Sequence record: MN850647.1
Origin: Escherichia phage tootiki
DNA: 64,000 bases
Reading direction: 5' to 3' (one strand)
A program made the translations under genes and the position numbers. Shown here piece by piece: positions 12,714 through 21,534 of the stretch. The notes under the pieces are model-generated. The model was not told where the DNA came from and ran no database searches. It was given only the letters and a program-made list of their open reading frames with translations. Within the stretch, counting starts at the first letter, position 1, and each line of letters opens with the position of its first letter.

Positions 12714-14330
12714 TCAACGTCTAAGCCCCTCATATGGGTTTCCTCTCACTAAGTCTGTGTGAGCACCCATTGATGGTGGCTTGAATAATTTAACTTCGTT
12801 AAGACTGTTGAAAGCATCACTGGTAGCATCCACTTGGTCATCTTTAGTTTTACCATCACCACAAAAACCTTCAAGTTCTTGAAAGTAAGCTTCGTTCCAA
12901 CTGCCTCTCAAGACTTTTACAAGTCCAGCTTCAGAAGCAGCAGAAAATCCCGCAAAGCGGGTAACTTTATCTTTATTTGTTGGTTTAGCTCTTGCGCGAT
13001 AACCTTTCTCGGCAAGTTTCCTGATGAGGGATGTTGCATAGGATTTACCAGCAGCGCCTGGGTCTTGAGGGATAAAAATACCAGTTCGCTTACCGTCACT
13101 TTCAGCAGTCAAATTAATTTGTGTTTCGACTCCAGAGGGTCTATCTCTAAATCTTACTACATCAATGATATAATAGCAACCGTCTTTTTTAGATTTACCC
13201 ATCTTAACACCCGCTGTCCAGTCTGGGTTAGGGTTAATTTCAGATGGTAAAGTCGCTGCTAAGTCCCATGCTCTGACATCAAACACATCTTCTGGGAGTG
13301 AATCAACAATCTCACACCATTGTCTTTGCCAATAGTTTGAACCTTCTGCACGAGCCTTCCAGTTACCGAAACGAAGTCTTGCAACGTTTACAGGTGTGTT
13401 GTTTTCCAACTTACCACGATATTTAGGCTCTAAGAAGTCAAGAATTGGGTTATCATCAATCGTACCAGAGATGAAGGTGTATGTCTGAGGAATCTCAAGA
13501 GGGAACATTTCAAGAATCTTGTCTCTCTCCCAATCAGAAACCATCACACCATCATTCATAACATACCAACGAATACGACCACACTTCTCAGGGTCTGGGT
13601 AACCTTCTTCATCTAAGAATGGCTCTACCCAATCATAAATGAAGTGGTCTCTGTCTGGGTTCATAGAAATCTTCATGTATGAATCGCCTTCAGCACCAGA
13701 ACGTAGACGGGTCTGTAGGTATGAAATCTGTGAAGCAGAGAAGTGTGTACCTTCGTCAAAGTAGATAGCTGAGTATTCAATACCCTGATGACCTTCAGCG
13801 TGCTTTTCAAGTTCTAAGTAGGTGAACTTAATAGTTGCCCCAGAAGGGAACGTGATAGTCATCTTCTGCTCGTGAGGAACCCCACCAAACTTACCAAATA
13901 GTTTCTTTGCAGCAGGCCATAAACCACCTTGTAACTGTGTTGTATTTCGACGGAAATATACAGCATTATAGTTAGGGTCTTCAATAAACCTTAAAGAGTC
14001 CATTAACAATGCAGCAGTTTTACCAGCACCAGCAGCACCACCATAGAGTACCAAGTCAGCATTAGTGTTTAAAAAGACCTCTTGAGAACCCGGCTGAGGG
14101 GCTACATAGTTCTTATCAGTCATCAACTTAAAGATAAGGCGAACTTGGTCTGGTGTGTATCTTAATAAAGTCAGAATTTGAGTTGGAAGGAATTTAGAGG
14201 GGTCTTTACCGAATGATTTGATAATTTCTTTTACTTCATCAGAAAGCCCCAACTCTCCAGCTAGGACTTTCCTAACATCTTCCACTCGCTTCTGCTTAAC
14301 AGCATTTAAATCCATTAAGCGCCTCCGCAA
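12714..14330 (-). CDS. terminase large subunit
   Basis: 538 aa; Walker A LYGGAAGAGKT; C-terminal nuclease-like acidic residues. Confidence 0.9.
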   Translation of the reverse strand: MRRRLMDLNAVKQKRVEDVRKVLAGELGLSDEVKEIIKSFGKDPSKFLPTQILTLLRYTPDQVRLIFKLMTDKNYVAPQPGSQEVFLNTNADLVLYGGAAGAGKTAALLMDSLRFIEDPNYNAVYFRRNTTQLQGGLWPAAKKLFGKFGGVPHEQKMTITFPSGATIKFTYLELEKHAEGHQGIEYSAIYFDEGTHFSASQISYLQTRLRSGAEGDSYMKISMNPDRDHFIYDWVEPFLDEEGYPDPEKCGRIRWYVMNDGVMVSDWERDKILEMFPLEIPQTYTFISGTIDDNPILDFLEPKYRGKLENNTPVNVARLRFGNWKARAEGSNYWQRQWCEIVDSLPEDVFDVRAWDLAATLPSEINPNPDWTAGVKMGKSKKDGCYYIIDVVRFRDRPSGVETQINLTAESDGKRTGIFIPQDPGAAGKSYATSLIRKLAEKGYRARAKPTNKDKVTRFAGFSAASEAGLVKVLRGSWNEAYFQELEGFCGDGKTKDDQVDATSDAFNSLNEVKLFKPPSMGAHTDLVRGNPYEGLRR

Positions 14331-14759: not shown

Positions 14760-14835
14760 TGGAGAATCCGAAGGGACTCGAACCCTTATAAACCTGTTCT
14801 GCAGACAGGTACATATCCATTTCTGTCACGGATTC
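14760..14835 (-). tRNA. tRNA-Cys (anticodon GCA)
   Basis: hand-folded cloverleaf: acceptor GAATCCG/CGGATTC, anticodon loop CTGCAGA, T-arm AAGGG-TTCGAGT-CCCTT, CCA encoded. Confidence 0.7.
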
Positions 14836-14839
14836 AAAT

Positions 14840-14932
14840 TGGAGGAAGATACCAGACTTGAACTGGTACACCGATTTCTCAGCTACTGGCAGTTTAGCAA
14901 ACTGCTCCCTTACCTTTTAGGGTTAATCTTCC
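14840..14932 (-). tRNA. tRNA-Ser (anticodon GCT), class II
   Basis: acceptor GGAAGAT/ATCTTCC, anticodon loop TTGCTAA, long variable arm, T-arm ACCAG-TTCAAGT-CTGGT. Confidence 0.65.
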
Positions 14933-14933
14933 A

Positions 14934-15668
14934 TTATTTCTGTAATGCGTTCTTCATTTCTGGTGTTGCAATAGTGTCAATCACACCAGTTTTACAAGCA
15001 TCGTCAAACCAGTCTGGTAAGATACCTGCTAAGAACCCATTGATATTCGTTTTAAGGTACTCTGCAATAAGGGCAGCTTCTTCTTCAATCATCTGCACAA
15101 CTTCATCTGCATAAGCTGTAATCTTTGAAATACCTTCATTAATTTTACTGACAGCTTGGTTAGCTAAATCAGAAACAGTGTCAAGACCCTTATCAATAGC
15201 GTCTTGTAAGTCACTTAACACACCGTTAACACTGTCTAGTGTGCTGTTAATCATGTCAATAGCTTGCTGACCATACTCTGTAGCAACACCCATAATACCA
15301 CTAAATGGTGTACAACCAACTTGTTCTCCTGCTGCACCCATAACATTGGAGTATCCCTTTGCTACCTGCATACGTGATGAAAACTCATCAATAGACTTTT
15401 GACCGTAGTCTGTTAGGGTCTTAGTAGTCGCTGTAGTGCTTGTAAGGCTTGTTGTAAAGCTGTTTAGAAGGACTGTTGTAAGTCCAGCAGCAACAAGTTT
15501 CTCCTTCATTGTAGGGTCTGTTACAGAGCTAATAGAGCTTACAAGTGATGTAGAGGCAGCTACGGTTCCACCGAGAACTGCTGCACCAGTAATAAGTGGG
15601 TTAGAAAACCCTTTACCGGTTTTTAAGAGATTAAAAATCTCCTTACCTTGTTCTGTCATCTCTTTCAT
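14934..15668 (-). CDS. hypothetical Ala/Ser/Thr-rich protein
   Basis: ORF track start at 15731 overlaps tRNA-Phe; start moved to internal ATG at 15668 (MKEMTEQ). Confidence 0.4.
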   Translation of the reverse strand: MKEMTEQGKEIFNLLKTGKGFSNPLITGAAVLGGTVAASTSLVSSISSVTDPTMKEKLVAAGLTTVLLNSFTTSLTSTTATTKTLTDYGQKSIDEFSSRMQVAKGYSNVMGAAGEQVGCTPFSGIMGVATEYGQQAIDMINSTLDSVNGVLSDLQDAIDKGLDTVSDLANQAVSKINEGISKITAYADEVVQMIEEEAALIAEYLKTNINGFLAGILPDWFDDACKTGVIDTIATPEMKNALQK

Positions 15669-15686
15669 TAAGCACCTTTGAAATTG

Positions 15687-15761
15687 GTAGTCCAGTGGGA
15701 TTTGAACCCTCTTCTCATGTTTTTCAGACACGCGCTTTAACCATATAAGCTACTTGGACTA
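15687..15761 (-). tRNA. tRNA-Phe (anticodon GAA)
   Basis: acceptor TAGTCCA/TGGACTA, anticodon stem CGTGT/ACATG loop CTGAAAA, T-loop TTCAAAT; D-arm weak. Confidence 0.55.
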
Positions 15762-15765
15762 TAAA

Positions 15766-15842
15766 TTGGGGTGACCTACGGGATTTGAACCCGTATAGAC
15801 CATGTTCACAGCATGGGTCATTACCATTTATGATAAGGCCAC
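15766..15842 (-). tRNA. tRNA-His (anticodon GTG)
   Basis: acceptor GTGGCCT/AGGTCAC, D-stem TCAT/ATGA, anticodon loop CTGTGAA, discriminator C, CCA encoded. Confidence 0.7.
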
Positions 15843-15873
15843 ATTTAAGGACTCTCGTAAGAACCCTTAGAAG

Positions 15874-15949
15874 TGGCAGCGGCATAAGGATTTGAACCTT
15901 AATAGGACAGCTTCAGAGACTGCTGCATTGCCAGTTATGCTATACCGCT
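15874..15949 (-). tRNA. tRNA-Gln (anticodon CTG)
   Basis: acceptor AGCGGTA/TGCCGCT, D-stem GCAT/ATGC, anticodon loop CTCTGAA, discriminator G. Confidence 0.65.
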
Positions 15950-15954
15950 AAAAT

Positions 15955-16033
15955 TGGTACTCCATATCGGATTCGAACCGATACATAACACAGATTTTAA
16001 GTCTGGCCTCTCTGCCAATTGGAGTAATGGAGC
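15955..16033 (-). tRNA. tRNA with Leu-type anticodon TAA, class-I length
   Basis: acceptor GCTCCAT/ATGGAGT, T-arm ATCGG-TTCGAAT-CCGAT, anticodon loop CTTAAAA, discriminator A; no long variable arm. Confidence 0.45.
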
Positions 16034-16035
16034 AT

Positions 16036-16111
16036 TGGCGGGGGATGTTGGAATTGAACCAACTTCTTCGATTTCAAAGACCGAGGTTTTAACCTTGTAA
16101 ACTAATCCCCT
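16036..16111 (-). tRNA. tRNA-Gln (anticodon TTG)
   Basis: acceptor with A1-C72 mismatch, D-stem GTTT/AAAC, anticodon stem TCGGT/ATCGA loop CTTTGAA, discriminator G. Confidence 0.6.
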
Positions 16112-16119
16112 TTAAATCT

Positions 16120-16677
16120 TTACTTTCTCAGTGGATGAATAAAGAATGCCAACATAACTCTTTCCCTTGAGAATGCTCTTTCTTCTGGGACAACACTTTT
16201 TAGTTTCCATCCAATATAAATTCTCCAGTAAAACTGTTTACCAAAGACTTTAATTGATGGGATAAAAGCGAATAACCCCCAAGCATTACTGTTCCACATT
16301 AGGAGATAGCCAGTCTGATTATCTTCAGGGTCAGAACTTACGTTGATATTACCTTTCCACTTAGTAACATCTTTTACATCTCTTCCTAATACATGGTAAG
16401 AGAAGTTATAAGCTTTGTTTCTCCAGAGCCATCCAACTCTCTGCATGTAGACACCCAGTTTACCAATCTTTCTAATCTTAGCCCATCTTTTGACGTGGCC
16501 TTCGTCACCATCAATCGGGTTGTCATAGGTCTCCATCCATCTGAATCCAAAAGGCAGATGTCCCTTCTTCTCACTGTAGAATGGAACTACGAAAGGTGCT
16601 AAGATGACTGCTAGGGTTGCTGCAAATGGTTCTAGTAAAGCTAGGAAAATCCATGAAGCATACTTCAAATATCTCAT
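16120..16677 (-). CDS. hypothetical membrane protein
   Basis: 185 aa ORF with hydrophobic N-terminus, embedded in tRNA array. Confidence 0.45.
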   Translation of the reverse strand: MRYLKYASWIFLALLEPFAATLAVILAPFVVPFYSEKKGHLPFGFRWMETYDNPIDGDEGHVKRWAKIRKIGKLGVYMQRVGWLWRNKAYNFSYHVLGRDVKDVTKWKGNINVSSDPEDNQTGYLLMWNSNAWGLFAFIPSIKVFGKQFYWRIYIGWKLKSVVPEERAFSRERVMLAFFIHPLRK

Positions 16678-16696
16678 CTAAATAGCCTCTTAAAAT

Positions 16697-16774
16697 TGGT
16701 GTTCCAAGACGGATTCGAACCGTCACTAATACAAGGTTTGAGCTTGCATCCTCTGCCAATTGGGATACTGGAAC
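16697..16774 (-). tRNA. tRNA with Leu-type anticodon CAA, class-I length
   Basis: acceptor GTTCCAG/TTGGAAC, T-arm GACGG-TTCGAAT-CCGTC, anticodon stem GCAAG/CTTGT loop CTCAAAC, discriminator A. Confidence 0.45.
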
Positions 16775-16775
16775 A

Positions 16776-16850
16776 TGGTACTCACTAAAGGACTTGAACC
16801 TTTTTCTTCATCTTGTAAGGGTGGTGTTTTACCATATAAACTAAGCGAGT
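16776..16850 (-). tRNA. tRNA-like, anticodon position reads TAC (Val) but anticodon stem poorly paired
   Basis: good acceptor, D-arm GTTT/AAAC and T-arm AAAGG-TTCAAGT-CCTTT; anticodon stem only 3 of 5 pairs. Confidence 0.4.
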
Positions 16851-16945
16851 GTGAAAGAGGTCTTAAGTTGTGCCGCTAACTCAACTCCGTGGAATTTGTT
16901 ACGGTCTTCAGTTGACACCAGCGGTCTTTCACTTGACCTCTGAAT

Positions 16946-17022
16946 TGGTGCTGCTCACAGGACTCGAACCTGCATTTCCATCCTTACAAGGGATGTGTAA
17001 TAGCCAATTATACGAAAGCAGC
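16946..17022 (-). tRNA. tRNA-Thr (anticodon TGT)
   Basis: anticodon stem CATCC/GGATG loop CTTGTAA, T-arm GCAGG-TTCGAGT-CCTGT, discriminator A. Confidence 0.7.
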
Positions 17023-17029
17023 ATTAATT

Positions 17030-17104
17030 TGGAGCATCCAGAGGGAATCGAACCCTCAACCTCAGTTTGGAAGACTGTAATTTTCCCGTTTAAACTATGG
17101 ATGC
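17030..17104 (-). tRNA. tRNA-Gly (anticodon TCC)
   Basis: acceptor GCATCCA/TGGATGC, anticodon loop CTTCCAA, T-arm GAGGG-TTCGATT-CCCTC, discriminator T. Confidence 0.65.
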
Positions 17105-17110
17105 ACTAAT

Positions 17111-17186
17111 TGGTGGAGAAGCAGGGAATTGAACCCTGTACTTAAGTTTGCAAAACTTATGTTTTAACCATGTAAACTACATCCCC
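17111..17186 (-). tRNA. tRNA-Ala (anticodon TGC)
   Basis: D-stem GTTT/AAAC, anticodon stem TAAGT/ACTTA loop TTTGCAA, T-arm CAGGG-TTCAATT-CCCTG, discriminator A. Confidence 0.7.
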
Positions 17187-17192
17187 AATATC

Positions 17193-17268
17193 TGGTACAG
17201 GTGGAGGGAATTGAACCCATCGTCTTACTGATTAAGAGTCAGCCGCATAACCATTTTGCTACACCTGC
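17193..17268 (-). tRNA. tRNA-Lys (anticodon CTT)
   Basis: acceptor GCAGGTG/CACCTGT, anticodon loop CTCTTAA; T-stem ATGGG/CCCTC imperfect, same as tRNA-Lys(TTT). Confidence 0.55.
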
Positions 17269-17275
17269 ATTAATT

Positions 17276-17353
17276 TGGTAGGAGACAAGGGATTCGAACC
17301 CTCAAACATCTCGTTCTAAGCGAGATAGGTTTACCAATTACCGTCAATCTCCC
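17276..17353 (-). tRNA. tRNA with Leu-type anticodon TAG, class-I length
   Basis: anticodon stem ATCTCG/CGAGAT perfect, loop CTTAGAA, T-arm GAGGG-TTCGAAT-CCCTT, discriminator A; no long variable arm. Confidence 0.5.
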
Positions 17354-17432
17354 ATTAAATCTTTTTAGAGAACTTCTAAGAACCTAAGCAACAAGGTTCC
17401 ACAACAAGCTGTAATAACCTTAGAAGCCCTCT

Positions 17433-17452
17433 AAAAAGACCTAAAAAGGTCT
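17433..17452 (-). terminator. intrinsic terminator-like hairpin inside tRNA array
   Basis: minus strand AGACC-TTTTTA-GGTCT followed by TTTT. Confidence 0.4.
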
Positions 17453-17611
17453 TTGCATAGTCTTGTTTAATCCGGTGACTATAACCTTTGGAGAGCTTGA
17501 TATTATCTCTTCTCCGTGACACCTACTAGGTGCTTTACTGTGCATGTACGACAATACACTAGGGATACCAAAGCAACATCCGAATGAAGCTTGGCTTTAA
17601 ATCTTATTAGG

Positions 17612-17699
17612 CGGTAAGTAAAGGAGTCGAACCCTCACCGTATCTCTACAGTGGCAACTGTTTTCAAGACAGTTTGGCTACCATTAGCCGCTACCTACC
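17612..17699 (-). tRNA. tRNA-Ser (anticodon TGA), class II
   Basis: acceptor GGTAGGT/ACTTACC, anticodon stem ACTGT/ACAGT loop CTTGAAA, 20 nt variable arm, discriminator G. Confidence 0.7.
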
Positions 17700-17717
17700 C
17701 CTAATAAGACTTTGGCA

Positions 17718-17795
17718 TGGGACGGAGGAGTTGAACCACTTTGAAACGGTTTTGGAGGCCGTTGCTCATGCCTTAGAGTCTTAACATCGTCCCAC
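17718..17795 (-). tRNA. tRNA-like; possible Trp (anticodon CCA) with enlarged D-loop
   Basis: acceptor GTGGGAC/GTCCCAT plus G73 and encoded CCA, T-loop TTCAACT; core does not fold canonically. Confidence 0.35.
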
Positions 17796-17932
17796 ACTAT
17801 AATTCGAAGCTTACCGTATTTTCACAACACTGTAAAGCCCCTTCTCAGATTATTTACATGTTCTGGAAAACATGAGATACAGACCACCTCCTTACAGGAA
17901 GACCCGCTTAGGTCGTCTAAGTAATCTGCTAA

Positions 17933-18280
17933 CTAATACTTTGCATGTCTTACCCTATGGCAATTTGAACATAGCAAAACACATTTGTCAAGTTCATCTT
18001 TTAGTTCTTGAGAGAACTTAAGGCTTTTCCTATGACCAATGTTAAAATCTTTATCTGAAGGATTCAAATGATGGAAGTCATACACTGCTGGATGATATTT
18101 CTTACCACAATCATGACAAACCCCACCTTTGTACTCAATAGCTGAGAGTTTAAGTGCTCTTTGTCTTTCTATGGTTTGCTCATTAACACACTTTTTACAG
18201 TATGAATGAGTTCTCCTACCATCTTTCATGTAGAAATCATTTTCATCCTTGCTAAGTTTGCACCTAATACAAGTTTTCAT
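17933..18280 (-). CDS. HNH endonuclease
   Basis: Cys pairs CIRCK and CKKC, HH-LNPSD-N motif, CSNCH; start moved to MKTCIRC because track start overlaps a tRNA. Confidence 0.7.
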   Translation of the reverse strand: MKTCIRCKLSKDENDFYMKDGRRTHSYCKKCVNEQTIERQRALKLSAIEYKGGVCHDCGKKYHPAVYDFHHLNPSDKDFNIGHRKSLKFSQELKDELDKCVLLCSNCHRVRHAKY

Positions 18281-18294
18281 GATTTCTCCAAAAT

Positions 18295-18376
18295 TGGTCG
18301 AGGCGGCAGGACTCGAACCCGCATACTCCACTTACTCGGTTAACGTCTGTTTAGAAGACAGATGAGATACGCCCCG
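18295..18376 (-). tRNA. tRNA-like; possible Arg (anticodon TCT) with atypical geometry
   Basis: acceptor CGGGGCG/CGCCTCG, T-arm GCGGG-TTCGAGT-CCTGC, CCA encoded; perfect hairpin TCTGT-CTTCTAA-ACAGA but no room for a D-arm. Confidence 0.35.
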
Positions 18377-18624
18377 TAATTATCTTTAAAGACTCTCTTA
18401 GAAAGCCCTTAAAGATGCCCACCTTATTAATCATACCGTGGGCTAGTACGCCAAATTCTTTGATGAGGGATTGGAAGACCTCACTGGTGTTTAGCCTATC
18501 AAGCTACTGCCAGAAAAACATTGTCGTTTGCATTTATTTTAAATTTGCAAAATAGACGCTACGCAACGAAAACTAAGGTTACTATAAAGTAGTCACATCT
18601 CAGTGTCAACAACTTTATTGAAAG

Positions 18625-18699
18625 TGGTTGTAGGTGAGGGTATCGAACCCTCTTCTAACGGTTATCAGCCGTTTGCATTACCATTTATGCTAACCCACA
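18625..18699 (-). tRNA. tRNA-Ile (anticodon GAT)
   Basis: D-stem GCAT/ATGC, anticodon stem AACGG/CCGTT loop CTGATAA, T-arm GAGGG-TTCGATA-CCCTC, discriminator A. Confidence 0.7.
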
Positions 18700-18701
18700 A
18701 T

Positions 18702-18778
18702 TGGAGGTTCAGGTGGGATTCAAACCCACATTCATAGGGCTTATGAAACCCTTGCATTACCTTATCTGCGACTGAACC
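18702..18778 (-). tRNA. tRNA-Met (anticodon CAT)
   Basis: acceptor GGTTCAG/CTGAACC, anticodon stem AAGGG/GCCCT loop TTCATAA, T-arm GTGGG-TTTGAAT-CCCAC. Confidence 0.65.
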
Positions 18779-18783
18779 ATTTT

Positions 18784-18859
18784 TGGTAGAAGTGGAGGGA
18801 TTCGAACCCATCGCCTGTCAGATTAAAAGTCTGCCGCATCACCATTCTGCTACACTTCC
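18784..18859 (-). tRNA. tRNA-Lys (anticodon TTT)
   Basis: acceptor GGAAGTG/CACTTCT, anticodon loop CTTTTAA, discriminator A; T-stem ATGGG/CCCTC imperfect. Confidence 0.55.
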
Positions 18860-19010
18860 ATTAAATCATCTTTGCAGTAACCTACGCAGACCTTGCTAAA
18901 GGGTCTGTAGAGTCATTTCATATTAAGCTAATCTAGAATCATACTAAGGAAATTCATCGGCACTCATGGGACGACATAATTAGCCACATAAGCTACTGCA
19001 AAGATAATTA

Positions 19011-19141
19011 CCAGACCGTTGTTTATCATCTTAAGTGCTACCATTACACCAACTCGACCTCTGCCGAGTGAAGGAATCGAACCTTCGCCTTTTCTTTACC
19101 GAGAAATAGATTGTTTAAGTTTTGCTGTAAACGGTCTTCTG
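19011..19141 (-). ncRNA. structured spacer module a: terminal inverted repeat enclosing a tRNA-like T-arm and D-arm-like segment
   Basis: minus strand CAGAAGACCG...CGGTCTGG ends pair; internal GAAGG-TTCGATT-CCTTC and AGTTGGTGTAATGGTAGCAC; no anticodon arm. Confidence 0.4.
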
Positions 19142-19154
19142 TAAATTTGTTGAG

Positions 19155-19230
19155 CCAGACCAAGTTTTAAATTTTTCAAAATTGAATTGGCTTGAAAATA
19201 TCATACATTCTTGCTGTATTTGGTCTTCTG
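19155..19230 (-). repeat. spacer module b (CCAGACCA...TGGTCTTCTG inverted-repeat unit)
   Basis: same terminal inverted repeat as module a. Confidence 0.4.
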
Positions 19231-19291
19231 CTCCTTTAAAGAATACTCGTAAGAACTCTTTAAGGGAGGGGCTAAATAGCCCTCTCAAAAT

Positions 19292-19368
19292 TGGCGGCTA
19301 CGATGAGACTTGAACTCAAATCATCTCCCGTGACAGGGGAGTATTTTCTCCAGTTAAACTACATAGCC
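19292..19368 (-). tRNA. tRNA-Asp (anticodon GTC)
   Basis: anticodon stem CTCCC/GGGAG loop CTGTCAC, acceptor GGCTATG/CGTAGCC, discriminator G. Confidence 0.7.
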
Positions 19369-19373
19369 TTTAT

Positions 19374-19461
19374 TGGTGTGCCGTGTAGGAGTCGAACCTA
19401 CCGAGTCTCAATGACAAGGGATTTACAGTCCCCACCGCTACCATCTACGGGATAACGACAC
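19374..19461 (-). tRNA. tRNA-Tyr (anticodon GTA), class II
   Basis: T-arm GTAGG-TTCGACT-CCTAC, anticodon loop CTGTAAA, about 15 nt variable arm, discriminator A. Confidence 0.7.
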
Positions 19462-19469
19462 ATTTAATT

Positions 19470-19546
19470 TGGCGGTTAGTCAGGGATTCGAACCCTGTGC
19501 CATTCGCTTAACAGGCGACCGCACATACCTTATGTGCTTCCTAACC
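19470..19546 (-). tRNA. tRNA-Asn (anticodon GTT)
   Basis: D-stem GCAC/GTGC, anticodon loop CTGTTAA, T-arm CAGGG-TTCGAAT-CCCTG, discriminator G. Confidence 0.65.
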
Positions 19547-19557
19547 TTAATACATTG

Positions 19558-19618
19558 CCAGACCGTGTTTTTTCTTTTATCCGCAAAAAAGTATTTTGTT
19601 GCTGAATACGGTCTTCTG
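19558..19618 (-). repeat. spacer module c (CCAGACCG...CGGTCTTCTG inverted-repeat unit)
   Basis: same terminal inverted repeat; internal GCAA/TTGC hairpin. Confidence 0.4.
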
Positions 19619-19624
19619 CAAAAT

Positions 19625-19701
19625 TGGAGGCGGGTGCAGGAGTCGAACCTGCCGATACCATGCTAATGAGACATGTGAGACGCCCTTTCTCTATACCCGC
19701 A
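19625..19701 (-). tRNA. tRNA-Met (anticodon CAT), second copy with 1-72 mismatch
   Basis: T-arm GCAGG-TTCGACT-CCTGC, D-stem GAGA/TCTC, anticodon stem CATGT/GCATG loop CTCATTA; T1-C72 unpaired. Confidence 0.55.
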
Positions 19702-19712
19702 ATTCTCAATGA

Positions 19713-19784
19713 CCAGACCAAATATCTTCTTTGTCCGATTTCGTGTCAGATGAGTAGATTAAGTTTGCTGTAATTGGTCTTCTG
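19713..19784 (-). repeat. spacer module d (CCAGACCA...TGGTCTTCTG inverted-repeat unit)
   Basis: same terminal inverted repeat as modules a-c. Confidence 0.4.
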
Positions 19785-19791
19785 TCAAAAC

Positions 19792-19869
19792 TGGCGTTCC
19801 AGAAGGGATTTGAACCCTCAGATATCCACTTTGAAAGAGTGGTGACTTTACCATTTTGTCTACTGGAAC
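19792..19869 (-). tRNA. tRNA-Glu (anticodon TTC)
   Basis: acceptor GTTCCAG/CTGGAAC, anticodon stem CCACT/AGTGG loop CTTTCAA, discriminator G. Confidence 0.7.
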
Positions 19870-19876
19870 ATTAATT

Positions 19877-19953
19877 TGGTCTCTGTTGGAGGACTTGAAC
19901 CTCCGGCCTTACCGCCCCAAACGGAATGCTCTACCAAGCTGAGCTAAACAGAG
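19877..19953 (-). tRNA. tRNA-Pro (anticodon TGG)
   Basis: acceptor CTCTGTT/AACAGAG, D-stem GCTC/GAGC, anticodon loop TTTGGGG, T-arm GGAGG-TTCAAGT-CCTCC. Confidence 0.65.
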
Positions 19954-20118: not shown

Positions 20119-21534
20119 TTACCAGATGTAACGGTCAATCATTACTGCTTTGAGCATTACGCTGATTGGGTCAAACTTCTCACCACCAAGCAGAGCTTTT
20201 AAAGTGGCTGGAGAGAACCCTGATACCATTGCTACACCATTATCCTTAACAGACACTTCGCAAGTACCATTACGGTTTGCTAAGTACCAGAATACTAGTT
20301 GTGGCATTTCGTATCCAGCTTTTTTGTACTTACTCTGAATTGCTTCAAAGTTTGTACGACCATTTGCACCATCAACCTGATTGAACTCCATATCAGAGAA
20401 GATGATAAGCTTACTTGGCATATCTTTCTGAGTCAAGTTGTTTCTATTACCTACCTCAAGAATACGGTCAAAAGCTGCTTGTAAGTTAGTTGAACCATAT
20501 TCAACATGACGCATTACCTGACGATGACGGTTTCGTAAATCACCACTCAGTTCAATGAAATGAGGGTTTGTTGAATAGACCATTAACTCATCTTTAAAGC
20601 AACCTGTATTGCGTTCTGCTATATACAAGGCAAGTGATACACCAATATCAAGGGCAGTGATTGAGCCAAGATTCACCCAAGACATTGAGCTTGAAACATC
20701 AGTCATACACAGGATGTTTTCACCTTCTGCCATCCAGTTTGGTAGTGCTTTCCACTGCTCATTAGCAACATCTGCATTACCATACTTAATAGATTTAATC
20801 ACATCGTATGGGTAAACAGCACCAGCGTTAATCTTAGCCTCACCCTTTGATAGTGATTCGATGTAAGCTTTGTAACGTTCCCCATCTTTACGGTTAAAGA
20901 GCTTTTGGTAACGTGCAGCAGCAAGTGAGGGAATCTTGCTGTAGTCAATCTTACCAAACTCATTAGCAGAGATTTTTTGCTCAACCGTATCAGACAGTGC
21001 AGATAACAGTGTGCGATACTCCTTCTCGCTTAAGTTTGCAAATTTACAGAAACGTTTTACAAACTGTTTGTGGCGTGGTTTTACTCGTGGCAACCACTTA
21101 GCTGCTAAACCTGCTGTTGCAGGGTCTAGTAATACTGCTTCTAAATGTTTGAAGGCATCTGTCTCAAAACGAGTATCTACAAAGATTTTGAAGTCATCAA
21201 AACGACCCAGTTCTGCAATCTTATCCATAATGCGAAGAACCTGTGTAGGTTCTAAAACCTTATCTTCAATCGCTTGAAGTAAAACAGTTCGGAAAGCTTT
21301 ACGCTCACCCATACCTTCTCGTACATCTCGCATATGCAGTAAAATACGAACTGCAACATCAACATCCTCACGCAAAGCTTTGTAGAACAGGTCTGGTAAG
21401 ATTTCTACATTGCTACGGCTTGAGCCAGCGGATTTGTAGAAGTCTACCAGAGCAGACATTGATGAAGTATGGTTTACAGCACCATTTTCAGTTCGACCTG
21501 CATGAAGGTGCGCATGTTTAAATAACTCGCTCAT
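20119..21534 (-). CDS. vWA/MIDAS-motif protein with helical N-terminal domain (DUF2828-like; Ro60-like architecture)
   Basis: 471 aa; MIDAS-like DVSSSM around residue 275; N-terminal TENGA...S..LVDFY...GSSRS pattern. Confidence 0.55.
   Translation of the reverse strand: MSELFKHAHLHAGRTENGAVNHTSSMSALVDFYKSAGSSRSNVEILPDLFYKALREDVDVAVRILLHMRDVREGMGERKAFRTVLLQAIEDKVLEPTQVLRIMDKIAELGRFDDFKIFVDTRFETDAFKHLEAVLLDPATAGLAAKWLPRVKPRHKQFVKRFCKFANLSEKEYRTLLSALSDTVEQKISANEFGKIDYSKIPSLAAARYQKLFNRKDGERYKAYIESLSKGEAKINAGAVYPYDVIKSIKYGNADVANEQWKALPNWMAEGENILCMTDVSSSMSWVNLGSITALDIGVSLALYIAERNTGCFKDELMVYSTNPHFIELSGDLRNRHRQVMRHVEYGSTNLQAAFDRILEVGNRNNLTQKDMPSKLIIFSDMEFNQVDGANGRTNFEAIQSKYKKAGYEMPQLVFWYLANRNGTCEVSVKDNGVAMVSGFSPATLKALLGGEKFDPISVMLKAVMIDRYIW

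Follow-up and report, generated by a model that had tools for sequence, protein, structure and literature searches.

The window, i.e., the whole 64,000-nucleotide stretch of Escherichia phage tootiki analyzed here, belongs to a Felix O1-like phage, shares 99.4% identity with Escherichia phage bumzen and carries a tRNA cluster on the minus strand. ARAGORN recognizes 24 tRNAs in the window, which leave arginine and tryptophan as the only unserved amino acids. Three elements, all on the minus strand (Table 1), had been grouped in a sequence-only reading as tRNA-like genes with intact ends and aberrant cores. Their coordinates proved essentially right, and the oddity ascribed to each is present. 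ARAGORN passes over elements 2 and 3.

Table 1. Coordinates of the three elements, their structural parts and the neighboring HNH gene.
Feature	Position	Strand	Remarks
Element 1, canonical tRNA-Val(UAC)	16776-16850	-	ARAGORN tRNA-Val(tac); Rfam tRNA, 55.8 bits
Element 2, putative non-canonical tRNA-Trp(CCA)	17713-17795	-	83 nt with G73 (17716) and CCA (17713-17715)
Element 2 acceptor 5' strand GUGGGACG, 8 nt	17788-17795	-	partner CGUCCCAU, 17717-17724
Element 2 connector AUGUUAAGA, 9 nt	17779-17787	-	2-nt connector in canonical tRNAs
Element 2 D arm CUC-UAAGGCAU-GAG	17765-17778	-	compensatory CUC/GAG, CAC/GUG, CAU/GUG
Element 2 anticodon arm AACGG-C-CUCCAAA-A-CCGUU	17745-17763	-	CCA at 17753-17755; 4 of 5 stem pairs compensatory
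Element 2 T arm GUGG-UUCAACU-CCUC, 4 bp	17725-17739	-	U·U mismatch specific to sub-lineage
HNH endonuclease gene, 115 aa	17933-18280	-	start lies 14 nt beyond the element 3 CCA
Element 3, putative non-canonical tRNA-Arg(UCU)	18295-18376	-	82 nt with encoded CCA (18295-18297) and A73 (18298)
Element 3 acceptor 5' strand CGGGGCG	18370-18376	-	partner CGCCUCG, 18299-18305; all 7 pairs covary, 99.3% of cells paired (62 variants)
Element 3 helix strand a, CUC	18364-18366	-	partner GAG, 18335-18337; after invariant U8 A9 U (18367-18369)
Element 3 anticodon arm UCUGU-CUUCUAA-ACAGA	18346-18362	-	UCU at 18353-18355; all 5 stem pairs covary
Element 3 linker CGUUAACC, 8 nt	18338-18345	-	anticodon stem to helix strand a'
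Element 3 helix strand a' and D-loop-like segment	18323-18337	-	GAG (18335-18337), then UAAGUGGAGUAU (18323-18334)
Element 3 T arm GCGGG-UUCGAGU-CCUGC	18306-18322	-	99% of cells paired; compensatory change in 4 of 5 pairs

Element 1 is a normal tRNA-Val. Only three of the five pairs of its anticodon stem (CCACC/GAUGA) form, because C27·A43 and C30·A40 are mismatched, just as had been described, and ARAGORN agrees with the Val-TAC assignment. The remaining cloverleaf is intact, with a canonical acceptor stem, discriminator and CCA, a local D arm, the T arm AAAGG-UUCAAGU-CCUUU and the anticodon loop CUUACAA. The mismatch at 30·40 is kept across the Ounavirinae, and that at 27·43 is recent. Since a covariance model recovers element 1 as a canonical tRNA-Val, and does not recover a canonical cloverleaf for elements 2 and 3, its grouping with the other two is unjustified.

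Element 3 has a 7-bp acceptor stem with A73 and CCA, a canonical T arm and an anticodon arm, and its acceptor and anticodon arms are not separated by a D hairpin. The sequence-only reading correctly described a perfect TCTGT-CTTCTAA-ACAGA hairpin, the lack of room for a D arm (only 7 nt, UAUCUCA, precede the hairpin) and a 23-nt segment before the T arm, but it missed the D-stem strand and the D loop that lie inside the 23-nt segment. There, GAG pairs with the CUC located upstream of the anticodon arm, which is therefore surrounded by a 3-bp helix, and the adjoining UAAGUGGAGUAU is similar to AAACGGAUA, the D loop in the canonical tRNA-Arg(UCU) of Shigella phage Sf13. We propose that CUC is the counterpart of D-stem positions 23-25 and that GAG together with UAAGUGGAGUAU would correspond to D-stem positions 10-13, A14, A15, G18, G19, A20, A21 and U48. 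The Rfam tRNA model (RF00005) aligns element 3 (33.4 bits, with a gathering score of 29) only if the D arm is deleted and 20 nt are inserted, because the D-stem strand and D loop are found 3' of the anticodon arm. With a family-specific covariance model, element 3 scores 97.6 bits, compared with at most 32.7 bits for the canonical tRNAs of the window.

More than 60 sequence variants, drawn from phage groups that are not related, share the architecture of element 3 and form a phage-wide family that had gone unnoticed in the first reading; all four helices covary. In the family alignment of 62 variants, 94.6% of the cells are paired and 19 of the 21 pairs show compensatory change, although compensatory-cell counts overstate the number of independent events because the sequences are related. 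None of 500 shuffles reached these values, and shifted registers drop to 33-46% paired. The enclosing 3-bp helix (columns 11-13 with 40-42) is paired in 62/62 variants and comes in six helix types, with UA 39, GC 13 and AU 10 at column pair 12-41 and CG 52, GC 6 and UA 4 at column pair 13-40; in its columns, mutual information equals the column entropy. Covariation is the sole evidence for this helix: RNAalifold, applied to the family, returned the acceptor, anticodon and T helices and no others, and single-sequence thermodynamic folding, which was uninformative (z-scores of approximately 0), did not predict it.

Many of the aligned family sequences were collected by patterns in which UUAA, UAA and UGGAGUAUG were fixed, so that the corresponding columns are invariant by construction. 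A scan in which the segment was not fixed uncovered real variation in these columns, with the consensus UAR-N-Y-GG-A(N0-2)GUAU after helix strand a' and linkers of 4-8 nt that end in AA plus 0-2 nt. The notion of GUUAA as a motif universal to elements 2 and 3 is weakened by unforced linkers such as CAUCAAC, CGGAA and CUAA, in which the terminal AA alone persists. Could element 3 then be a functional but floppy D-armless tRNA-Arg, with CUC/GAG just lengthening the anticodon stem and the 12-nt segment being passive? Formally, its secondary structure amounts to a three-way junction whose long anticodon hairpin carries an asymmetric internal loop, as this explanation would have it, and the tertiary mapping of the relocated segment is one that we infer. 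Nevertheless, the connector is strongly conserved and keeps the D-loop signature A-R-N-Y-G-G-A...A even in the unforced members, U8, A9 and U10 are invariant in the alignment set without having been fixed by any search pattern, the T loop is canonical throughout, and bacterial ArgRS normally requires A20. A passive segment thus strikes us as quite improbable. For a Levitt-type 15-48 pair only two sequences are informative, too few to give this check of the three-dimensional model any power; of these, G/C fits and G/G does not.

Homologs of element 3 with approximately 86% identity are found in Asteriusvirus, Demerecviridae, Stephanstirmvirinae, Vequintavirinae and Stanwilliamsviridae, and members of the family are present on at least 73 IMG/VR contigs. 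A scan of 185,579 bacterial and archaeal genomes returned just 4 matching MAG contigs; the family is phage-specific and virtually absent from bacteria and archaea. Its members are embedded in tRNA arrays, and in GenBank such genes carry no annotation, are labeled "tRNA-OTHER" or "tRNA-TERM", or are covered by an overlapping ORF. We found no published description of the element 2 or 3 RNA, including the conserved sequence motif, in the open-access literature, a negative that is not proof of novelty because it covers open-access papers only; the element 3 family is apparently undescribed so far.

The syntenic site in Mooglevirus phages and Pectobacterium phage Wc4-1 is occupied by a canonical tRNA-Arg(UCU), and the homology shared with Sf13 and Citrobacter phage Mordin ends exactly at the 5' end of the tRNA, to return beyond the stop codon of the HNH gene. 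Judging by these junctions, element 3 and the HNH gene form a cassette that precisely replaces the canonical tRNA-Arg(UCU) of the sister phages, and a separate canonical tRNA-Arg(UCU) was found in none of the 32 loci that hold element 3. The 115-aa protein matches Pfam HNH and PHROG 2255 (HNH endonuclease, E = 3e-39). HNH genes belonging to two unrelated families lie directly downstream of the element 3-type tRNA in 11 of the 70 distinct contexts; that they represent one mobile family was rejected, since no relationship links the Felix-type HNH and the HNH_3/NUMOD4 proteins that Roth37, Kamaji and 7t3 encode. Such recurrent proximity to HNH genes, at a distance of only 14 nt in the window, the behavior of element 3 and the HNH gene as a single cassette, and the identity of approximately 86% across unrelated phages, suggestive of horizontal transfer, would also be expected if the elements were tRNA genes that are scrambled or in decay (pseudogenes, or scars left by homing endonucleases), kept only as hitchhikers, flank or target of the HNH gene. 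However, the adjacent HNH gene is missing in most family members, and element 2, whose helices covary too, has no directly neighboring endonuclease. Furthermore, the stems diverge in sequence but stay paired while the loops and the anticodon are fixed, which argues for selection on RNA rather than on a DNA target or on nothing. We thus deem it exceedingly improbable that the elements are remnants of this kind.

The anticodons and discriminators of the family fit an arginine identity. In bacteria, the set recognized by ArgRS comprises A/G73, A20, C35 and U/G36 (PMC9976931). Members retrieved without fixing the anticodon have UCU, CCU or UCG, all of which are arginine anticodons, and 63 of the 66 variants have a purine discriminator, A or G (G 34, A 29, U 2 and C 1). 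The window copy, with UCU and A73, agrees with C35, U/G36 and A/G73. In nearly all members, an A stands right after the GG of the relocated D-loop-like segment (one exception, L310, has GGC), and this A may occupy the spatial position of A20. CCA is encoded in 45/66 family variants and absent in the others, e.g., in Streptomyces phage Sollertia. An alanine identity, for which the window copy has G3·U70 and A73, was rejected, as was charging by AlaRS, because the 3-70 pair is not conserved across the family (GC 27, CG 10, GU 9, AU 9, UA 6 and UG 1).

Element 2, found in the Ounavirinae only (Felix O1-like and Moogle-like phages), has an open acceptor stem with G73 and CCA and a local D hairpin displaced by a 9-nt connector. 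The enlarged D region and possible Trp-CCA identity noted earlier are reflected in the 24 nt that separate the 8-bp acceptor stem from the anticodon stem and in the CCA anticodon; the extent given, 17718-17795, has to be lengthened to that in Table 1, because the encoded CCA lies outside the acceptor strand, 5 nt further downstream than was recognized. Elements 1 and 3 have T arms of the canonical kind (a 5-bp stem and the 7-nt loop U54-U55-C56-R57-A58); element 2 has the loop UUCAACU on a 4-bp stem. All three have a 7-nt anticodon loop with U33 and a purine at 37. An alignment of nine variants, which represent only about four divergent lineages, is 99.4% paired, with compensatory change in 8 pairs. 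The site of the U·U mismatch in the T stem is G·U in relatives, and the 50-64 pair covaries between G-C and U-A; the loop-closing pair (31·39) is always mismatched, as C·A or C·C. G8 can pair with C at would-be position 65 in 9/9 variants, and A49·C65, which a 7/5 geometry would need, never pairs. The acceptor stem is thus probably 8 bp long and element 2 best read as an 8/4 tRNA, a reading not considered previously, with the eighth acceptor pair being invariant in the nine variants and hence providing no covariation for the 8/4 geometry.

The Rfam tRNA model does not match element 2 even at E = 10, and its sole Rfam match is tRNA-Sec (RF01852). This candidate was rejected, given the 21.3 bits against a gathering score of 47, the anticodon CCA rather than UCA and the 5-nt variable region. 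Also discarded was the 4-bp D stem of the Rfam tRNA-Sec alignment (UGUU/AGCA with a 16-nt loop), which shows no compensatory change and breaks in 4/9 variants. The bacterial identity set for TrpRS consists of G73, the anticodon CCA and the first pair A1-U72 (PMC9976931). G73 and CCA are present in all nine variants; the first pair is A1-U72 in five, G1·U72 in three, including the window copy, and G-C in one. The window copy could be slightly impaired because of its T-stem U·U and of G1·U72 in place of A1-U72. Collectively, the conserved, covarying helices of elements 2 and 3 are more than chance would produce and point to selection at the RNA level.

By their anticodons, elements 2 and 3 would complete the 20-amino-acid tRNA set of the phage. 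Moogle-like phages have been reported to cover 19 amino acids (PMC12482277). Besides element 3, the window is without any tRNA-Arg, and AGA makes up 36.6% of its arginine codons (14.3 per 1000 codons). The non-canonical cores, which ARAGORN accepts in neither case, could alternatively indicate that elements 2 and 3 are tRNA mimics idle in translation, acting as decoys or sponges for tRNA-targeting nucleases of the host or for a synthetase, or as partners of an RNA-binding protein of the phage, in the manner of YrlA-type Y RNAs or T4 stable RNAs C and D. Indeed, a YrlA-like tRNA mimic whose acceptor hairpin is closed lies in the same cluster (approximately 19012-19138), so that mimicry has to be reckoned with in this phage. 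The cluster is adjoined by a DUF2828/DUF7788 protein that falls into PHROG 850 ("RNA-binding protein"), and a conserved anticodon loop would also be expected of an anticodon-nuclease decoy. Despite these parallels, open acceptor ends, the A/G discriminator and CCA are all retained, anticodon variation is confined to arginine anticodons, exactly the Arg and Trp gaps of the phage tRNA set are filled, element 3 replaces the canonical tRNA-Arg(UCU) one for one, and AGA is heavily used. A pure decoy does not need all such traits together, and we regard this explanation as unlikely. The DUF2828/DUF7788 protein is 471 aa long; a Ro60-like nature was not borne out, with a PDB sequence search being negative and a single-sequence AlphaFold model (pLDDT 43) unusable.

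We conclude that elements 2 and 3, which lie in one cluster with a normal tRNA-Val, most likely function as tRNAs and that their cores are rewired. Of the three options entertained in the sequence-only reading (pseudo-tRNA, regulatory RNA or unusual functional tRNA), the last fits elements 2 and 3 best, because their helices cov­ary, the Arg and Trp identities fit, the amino acid gaps are filled and a syntenic replacement has occurred; element 1 is a plain tRNA-Val with a mismatched anticodon stem. For both elements, we infer the fold, charging by the host ArgRS and TrpRS, and decoding from sequence. In element 3, the D arm would be split, with U-CUC after U8-A9 running directly into the anticodon stem and the partner strand GAG-U, followed by the D-loop-like AAGUGGAGUA-U, placed 3' of the anticodon arm and just 5' of the T arm. 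The 3-bp helix would stack on the anticodon stem, where the D stem would be, and thereby keep the normal distance between the anticodon and CCA. In the relocated loop, GG is predicted to dock on the T loop, and the next A would be read by ArgRS as A20. The resulting molecule would be an L-shaped tRNA with an altered backbone path, in which the canonical segments 10-21 and 22-47 are exchanged. Its presumed role would be the reading of AGA (and AGG), codons heavily used by the phage and poorly decoded by E. coli. The gene, present in the tRNA arrays of many unrelated phages, travels in some of them at least as a cassette together with a neighboring HNH homing endonuclease.

More tentatively, and with less than even confidence, we suggest that element 3 represents an unrecognized, phage-specific class of fully functional, L-shaped tRNA-Arg charged by the host ArgRS, and element 2 a second, independent rewiring. 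The core of element 3 may have been favored by escape from host tRNA-directed defense nucleases. Alternatively, homing endonucleases directed against the canonical tRNA-Arg genes of phages may carry it as their cleavage-immune allele. If true, a natural and widespread tRNA that retains every part but joins the parts in another order would demonstrate that the L shape tolerates rewiring, and could serve as a new scaffold in the engineering of orthogonal tRNAs. It would also provide a test case for what phage-carried tRNAs are for, be it codon supply, evasion of tRNA-cleaving defenses or the spread of homing endonucleases. Because standard finders miss or mislabel such genes, phage tRNA repertoires would be under-counted, an example being the 19 amino acids reported for Moogle-like phages.

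The segment order of the tRNA cloverleaf is among the most conserved architectures in biology, and to our knowledge, the exceptions mostly drop arms (mitochondria) or resize helices (tRNA-Sec, tRNA-Pyl and allo-tRNAs). Canonical tRNA-Arg(UCU) genes (Sf13, Mordin and the T4 tRNA-Arg) share with element 3 the loop CUUCUAA, the 7-bp acceptor, A/G73, CCA, the canonical T arm and the D-loop motif AA..GGA.A, and those of Sf13 and Mordin occupy the same slot between tRNA-Ile and tRNA-Ser. However, they have a D hairpin, whereas element 3 has none and carries its D strand and loop 3' of the anticodon arm. In the proposed backbone topology of element 3, the 5' strand of the D stem and the D loop would sit in the variable region, which would set it apart from all tRNAs known. 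The absence of a D hairpin and the short connector are shared with the D-armless mt-tRNA-Ser(GCU/AGY) of mammals and mt-tRNA-Ser(UCU) of nematodes. D-armless mitochondrial tRNAs are shrunken and have lost the contact between the D loop and the T loop, as described in a review that also treats allo-tRNAs (PMC7609411). In contrast, element 3 measures 79 nt without CCA, which is longer than a normal tRNA, has a canonical T loop, possesses a D-loop-like segment with GG and, where the D stem would be, a helix that covaries, and resides in phages rather than organelles.

For element 2, the closest parallels are 8/4 tRNAs, with which it shares a possible 8-bp acceptor stem and 4-bp T stem, 12 bp in total. 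Mukai et al. (2017) reportedly described this acceptor/T-stem geometry for allo-tRNAs and for some bacterial and phage Ser and His tRNAs. Bacterial tRNA-Sec has an 8/5 geometry. Unlike allo-tRNAs and tRNA-Sec, element 2 combines CCA with Trp identity, has no long variable arm and has a connector of 9 nt instead of 1-2 nt. A non-canonical segment order is known from the red alga Cyanidioschyzon merolae, where the permutation is circular and takes in the whole tRNA gene, and where the mature tRNA regains its canonical form by processing. The ends of element 3, however, are normal acceptor ends, and its exchange of internal segments would be retained after maturation. YrlA-type Y RNAs resemble elements 2 and 3 in mimicking tRNA by T-arm, D-arm and acceptor-like modules, but have a closed acceptor hairpin, lack an anticodon arm and end in a Ro-binding stem (PMC4201824). 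Elements 2 and 3 differ from them in their open acceptor ends with CCA and in their genuine anticodon arms.

The sequence-only reading singled out three tRNA-like elements with aberrant cores in the tRNA cluster of the phage, and the oddity of all three is borne out. Of the explanations offered there, that of unusually structured, functional tRNAs is the best for element 2 (tRNA-Trp(CCA)) and element 3 (tRNA-Arg(UCU)) and, judging from sequence comparisons, is probably correct, whereas element 1 (tRNA-Val(UAC)) is an ordinary tRNA. ARAGORN calls the latter as tRNA-Val(tac), and the Rfam tRNA model aligns to it over the full length with 55.8 bits. Manual reading gives 7 bp in the acceptor stem and GUUU/AAAC as D stem around a loop of 8 nt; the variable loop measures 4 nt, the T arm is perfect, and the 3' end carries A73 and CCA. 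Its anticodon stem is 3/5 paired, as had been claimed (CCACC/GAUGA, with mismatches C27·A43 and C30·A40), but, apart from this weak stem, the supposedly aberrant core forms a canonical cloverleaf, the very outcome that the sequence-only reading had named as its refutation. Across Ounavirinae, this tRNA keeps a mismatch at 30·40 (Felix-like phages have C·A, and Sf13, Mordin, and Wc4-1 have U·U), whereas that at 27·43 is recent (U-A in Felix O1, C-G in Moogle-like phages).

Coordinates of the tRNA-like elements and associated features in the window and at other viral loci
Feature	Location	Strand
tRNA cluster	14760-19953	minus
Missing tRNA-Arg(ACG), corresponding site	~16675-16697	
Element 1, tRNA-Val(UAC)	16776-16850	
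Anticodon stem of tRNA-Val(UAC)	16808-16824	minus
Imperfect hairpin	17355-17444	
Element 2, tRNA-Trp(CCA)	17713-17795	
HNH endonuclease gene, downstream of element 3	17933-18280	minus
Element 3, tRNA-Arg(UCU)	18295-18376	
Imperfect hairpin	18382-18416	
Sigma-70-like promoter	18581-18609	minus
tRNA-Lys	18784-18859	
Imperfect hairpin	18864-19009	
Fourth tRNA-like element, between tRNA-Asp and tRNA-Lys	19012-19138	minus
Imperfect hairpin	19231-19268	
tRNA-Asp	19292-19368	
Gene for 471-aa protein, adjoining the tRNA cluster	20119-21534	minus
Canonical tRNA-Arg(ACG), bumzen and Felix O1	L001:2693-2767, L003:697-772	
HNH genes at other loci	L005:1598-2107, L009:1584-2147, L004:1606-2124	
Paired non-canonical tRNA-Arg, CCU and divergent UCU	L146:12999-13077, 13348-13426	
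Paired non-canonical tRNA-Arg, UCG and UCU	L128:3788-3865, 4087-4164	
Extra tRNA-like segment, Mordin	L156:~1225-1350	
"tRNA-???" calls, Mydo-like arrays	L008:1063-1137, L014:928-997, 2598-2672	
Second "tRNA-OTHER", Roth37	L005:120-204	

The window comes from a Felixounavirus; over positions 16500-19500, identity is 99.4% with Escherichia phage bumzen and 94% with Salmonella phage Felix O1. The cluster contains 24 tRNAs called by ARAGORN (23 by Rfam), and the 24 leave only Arg and Trp uncovered. The canonical tRNA-Arg(ACG) that bumzen and Felix O1 encode between a conserved ORF and tRNA-Leu(CAA) is missing from the window, and element 3 is thus its sole tRNA-Arg. AGA accounts for 36.6% of Arg codons in the window (14.3 per 1000 codons), where no other tRNA-Arg is present. 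This codon is rare in E. coli.

Element 3 reads CGGGGCG-UAU-CUC-A-UCUGU-CUUCUAA-ACAGA-CGUUAACC-GAG-UAAGUGGAGUAU-GCGGG-UUCGAGU-CCUGC-CGCCUCG-A-CCA. ARAGORN does not call it in the window, and the Rfam tRNA model reaches 33.4 bits only with the D arm deleted (4 nt for 15) and 20 nt inserted in the variable region. A covariance model built from its own family scores it at 97.6 bits, versus at most 32.7 bits for the canonical tRNAs of the window. After U8-A9, U-C-N-N would connect, via a single nucleotide, to the 5' side of the anticodon stem, as positions 22-25 and 26 do in canonical tRNAs. The partner strand would be N-N-G-U, followed by A-A-N-U-G-G-A-G-U-A-U, which may supply the D-loop signature A14, R15, G18, G19, A20, and A21, with a U possibly serving as U48; this relocated segment is much like AAACGGAUA, the D loop of the canonical tRNA-Arg(UCU) in Sf13. 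From the strand order and the D-loop-like signature, we infer that element 3 is a tRNA with its canonical segments 10-21 and 22-47 in swapped order. In the three-dimensional model inferred on this basis, the 3-bp helix and the anticodon stem would provide as many stacked layers as a D stem plus anticodon stem, so that the distance from anticodon to CCA would be kept.

BLAST uncovered copies of element 3, ~86% identical, in unrelated phages: the jumbo phages 7t3 and PBECO4 (Asteriusvirus), Klebsiella phages Sugarland and Roth37 and Serratia phage Kamaji (Demerecviridae), cardinal and muut (Justusliebigvirus), Proteus phage Mydo (Vequintavirinae), and Streptomyces phage Sollertia (Stanwilliamsviridae). 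In GenBank, these are unannotated, labeled tRNA-OTHER or tRNA-TERM, or hidden under overlapping ORF calls. Scanning IMG/VR by pattern gave at least 73 loci. The family alignment, comprising 62 distinct variants in total, is 94.6% paired, with compensatory changes in 19/21 pairs, although some columns are fixed by the pattern-based retrieval and compensatory-cell counts are inflated by sequence relatedness. None of 500 shuffles reached the observed values, and shifted registers were only 33-46% paired. The key helix, which joins the base triplet following UAU to that preceding UAA, is paired in 62/62 variants and occurs in six forms (CUC/GAG, CGC/GCG, CAG/CUG, CAC/GUG, CAU/AUG, and CUU/AAG), its mutual information equaling the column entropy; in a divergent second copy (L146), the otherwise invariant C-G pair is flipped to G-C. 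Since it closes an internal loop that is large and asymmetric, the helix is not predicted by RNAalifold for the family, and its support therefore comes from covariation. When members were retrieved with the D-loop-like region left unfixed, the linker after the anticodon stem measured 4 to 8 nt and ended in AA, and the consensus was UAR-N-Y-GG-A(N0-2)GUAU. For the 15-48 pair, two sequences are informative: G/C fits and G/G does not. Only 4 MAG contigs matched among 185,579 bacterial and archaeal genomes, and the family is effectively restricted to phages.

All anticodons in a scan fixing the D-loop-like segment only were UCU, CCU (L122 and L146), or UCG (L128, alongside a UCU copy), and no non-Arg member turned up when a further 0.87 Mb of viral loci were searched with a covariance model. 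Two viral contigs, L146 and L128, carry pairs of non-canonical Arg tRNAs. The discriminator is A or G in 63/66 variants, and CCA is encoded in 45/66; the bacterial Arg identity set comprises A/G73, A20, C35, and U/G36 (PMC9976931). At 0/32 loci carrying a family member is there a separate canonical tRNA-Arg(UCU) beside it; at two of the loci, ARAGORN calls the member itself, as a 94-96-nt tRNA-Arg.

In Mooglevirus members (Sf13, Mordin, and ESh19) and Pectobacterium phage Wc4-1, the place between tRNA-Ile and element 2 is taken by a canonical tRNA-Arg(UCU). Identity between the window and Sf13/Mordin is ~90% over the 248-nt upstream spacer, reaching the 5' end of the tRNA, and returns directly past the HNH stop codon. 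These breakpoints indicate replacement of the 77-nt canonical gene by the non-canonical tRNA-Arg, a 14-nt spacer, and a gene for a 115-aa HNH endonuclease. In 11/70 distinct contexts, from several unrelated phages, the non-canonical tRNA-Arg is followed after 7-18 nt by an HNH gene. Two families that are not related to each other are represented, one of the Felix type and one of the HNH_3/NUMOD4 type (7t3, Roth37, and Kamaji). Such a pattern suggests repeated invasion of the spot by homing endonucleases or co-mobilization of tRNA-Arg and HNH gene. Since most copies lack an endonuclease, the non-canonical tRNA-Arg is independent of it.

The upstream spacer also contains a near-consensus sigma-70-like promoter (TTGACA-17 nt-TATAGT, 11/12 matches), with the total of promoter-like sites in the region no higher than the shuffled expectation. 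Of four imperfect hairpins, several with a common CUUUAAAG-type motif, three end a few nt before a tRNA that heads a sub-cluster (element 3, tRNA-Leu(TAG), and tRNA-Lys(TTT)), and the fourth follows tRNA-Asp; they could be processing or transcription signals. The hairpin before element 3 is kept in Sf13 and Mordin.

Element 2, confined to Ounavirinae, reads GUGGGACG-AUGUUAAGA-CUC-UAAGGCAU-GAG-C-AACGG-C-CUCCAAA-A-CCGUU-UCAAA-GUGG-UUCAACU-CCUC-CGUCCCAU-G-CCA. Across its nine distinct variants, pairing is 99.4% and compensatory changes affect 8 pairs: the D stem has three versions (CUC/GAG, CAC/GUG, and CAU/GUG), as does the anticodon stem, and T-stem pair 50-64 is G-C or U-A. An alternative D stem with a large loop is unsupported among the variants. 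In all variants, the G that follows acceptor pair 7 is complementary to the C at would-be position 65, and A49·C65 never pairs; this favors a predicted 8-bp acceptor and 4-bp T stem, although the eighth pair never varies. The T stem has U·U in the sub-lineage of the window versus G·U in relatives. With CCA, G73, and A1-U72 (G1·U72 in the window), element 2 agrees with the bacterial Trp identity set. For the Moogle-like phage Sf14, the published count is 26 tRNAs for 19 amino acids (PMC12482277), as expected if the tRNA-Trp goes unrecognized. The loop-closing 31·39 is a mismatch in every variant; with the 30·40 mismatch that tRNA-Val retains, this suggests that Ounavirinae tolerate or favor weak anticodon stems.

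Other unusual elements occur in related arrays. Mordin has, between tRNA-Arg(UCU) and element 2, an unannotated segment of ~125 nt that resembles a tRNA and is missing from Sf13: its acceptor stem is GGUCAAG/CUUGACU and its T arm GUAGG-UUCGACU-CCUAC, the interior is long, and the end is GCCA. Mydo-like arrays contain ARAGORN "tRNA-???" calls with two-base anticodons, and Roth37 has a second "tRNA-OTHER" with no relation to the Arg family. Phage clusters such as these may often contain non-canonical tRNAs.

No description of the element 2 or 3 RNA was found in the full text of open-access papers, and a review of non-canonical tRNAs contains nothing like element 3 among its entries (PMC7609411). 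The main rival to functional tRNAs, that elements 2 and 3 are non-translational tRNA mimics, appears unlikely, even though a genuine mimic resides in the same cluster. This fourth element, uncalled by ARAGORN or Rfam, comprises in order a perfect T arm (GAAGG-UUCGAUU-CCUUC), a closed acceptor-like hairpin (ACUCGGC-AGAG-GUCGAGU), and a D-arm-like part (GUG-UAAUGGUAG-CAC), all enclosed by an 8-bp long-range stem (AGACCGUU/AACGGUCU). The closed hairpin covaries (ACUCGGC/GUCGAGU in the window, ACACG/CGUGU in Sf13, and ACCCUUC/GAAGGGU in Mordin). The neighboring 471-aa protein, which carries the annotation "vWFA protein" in bumzen, has matches to Pfam families DUF2828 and DUF7788 and to PHROG 850 ("RNA-binding protein"); searching the PDB by sequence gave no match, and a single-sequence AlphaFold model (pLDDT 43) was unusable. 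The order of T arm, acceptor hairpin, and D arm is the same as in YrlA-type Y RNAs (PMC4201824), and the protein, with its helical N-terminal and alpha/beta C-terminal parts, would fit a Ro60-like (TROVE plus vWA) partner of such a YrlA-like RNA.
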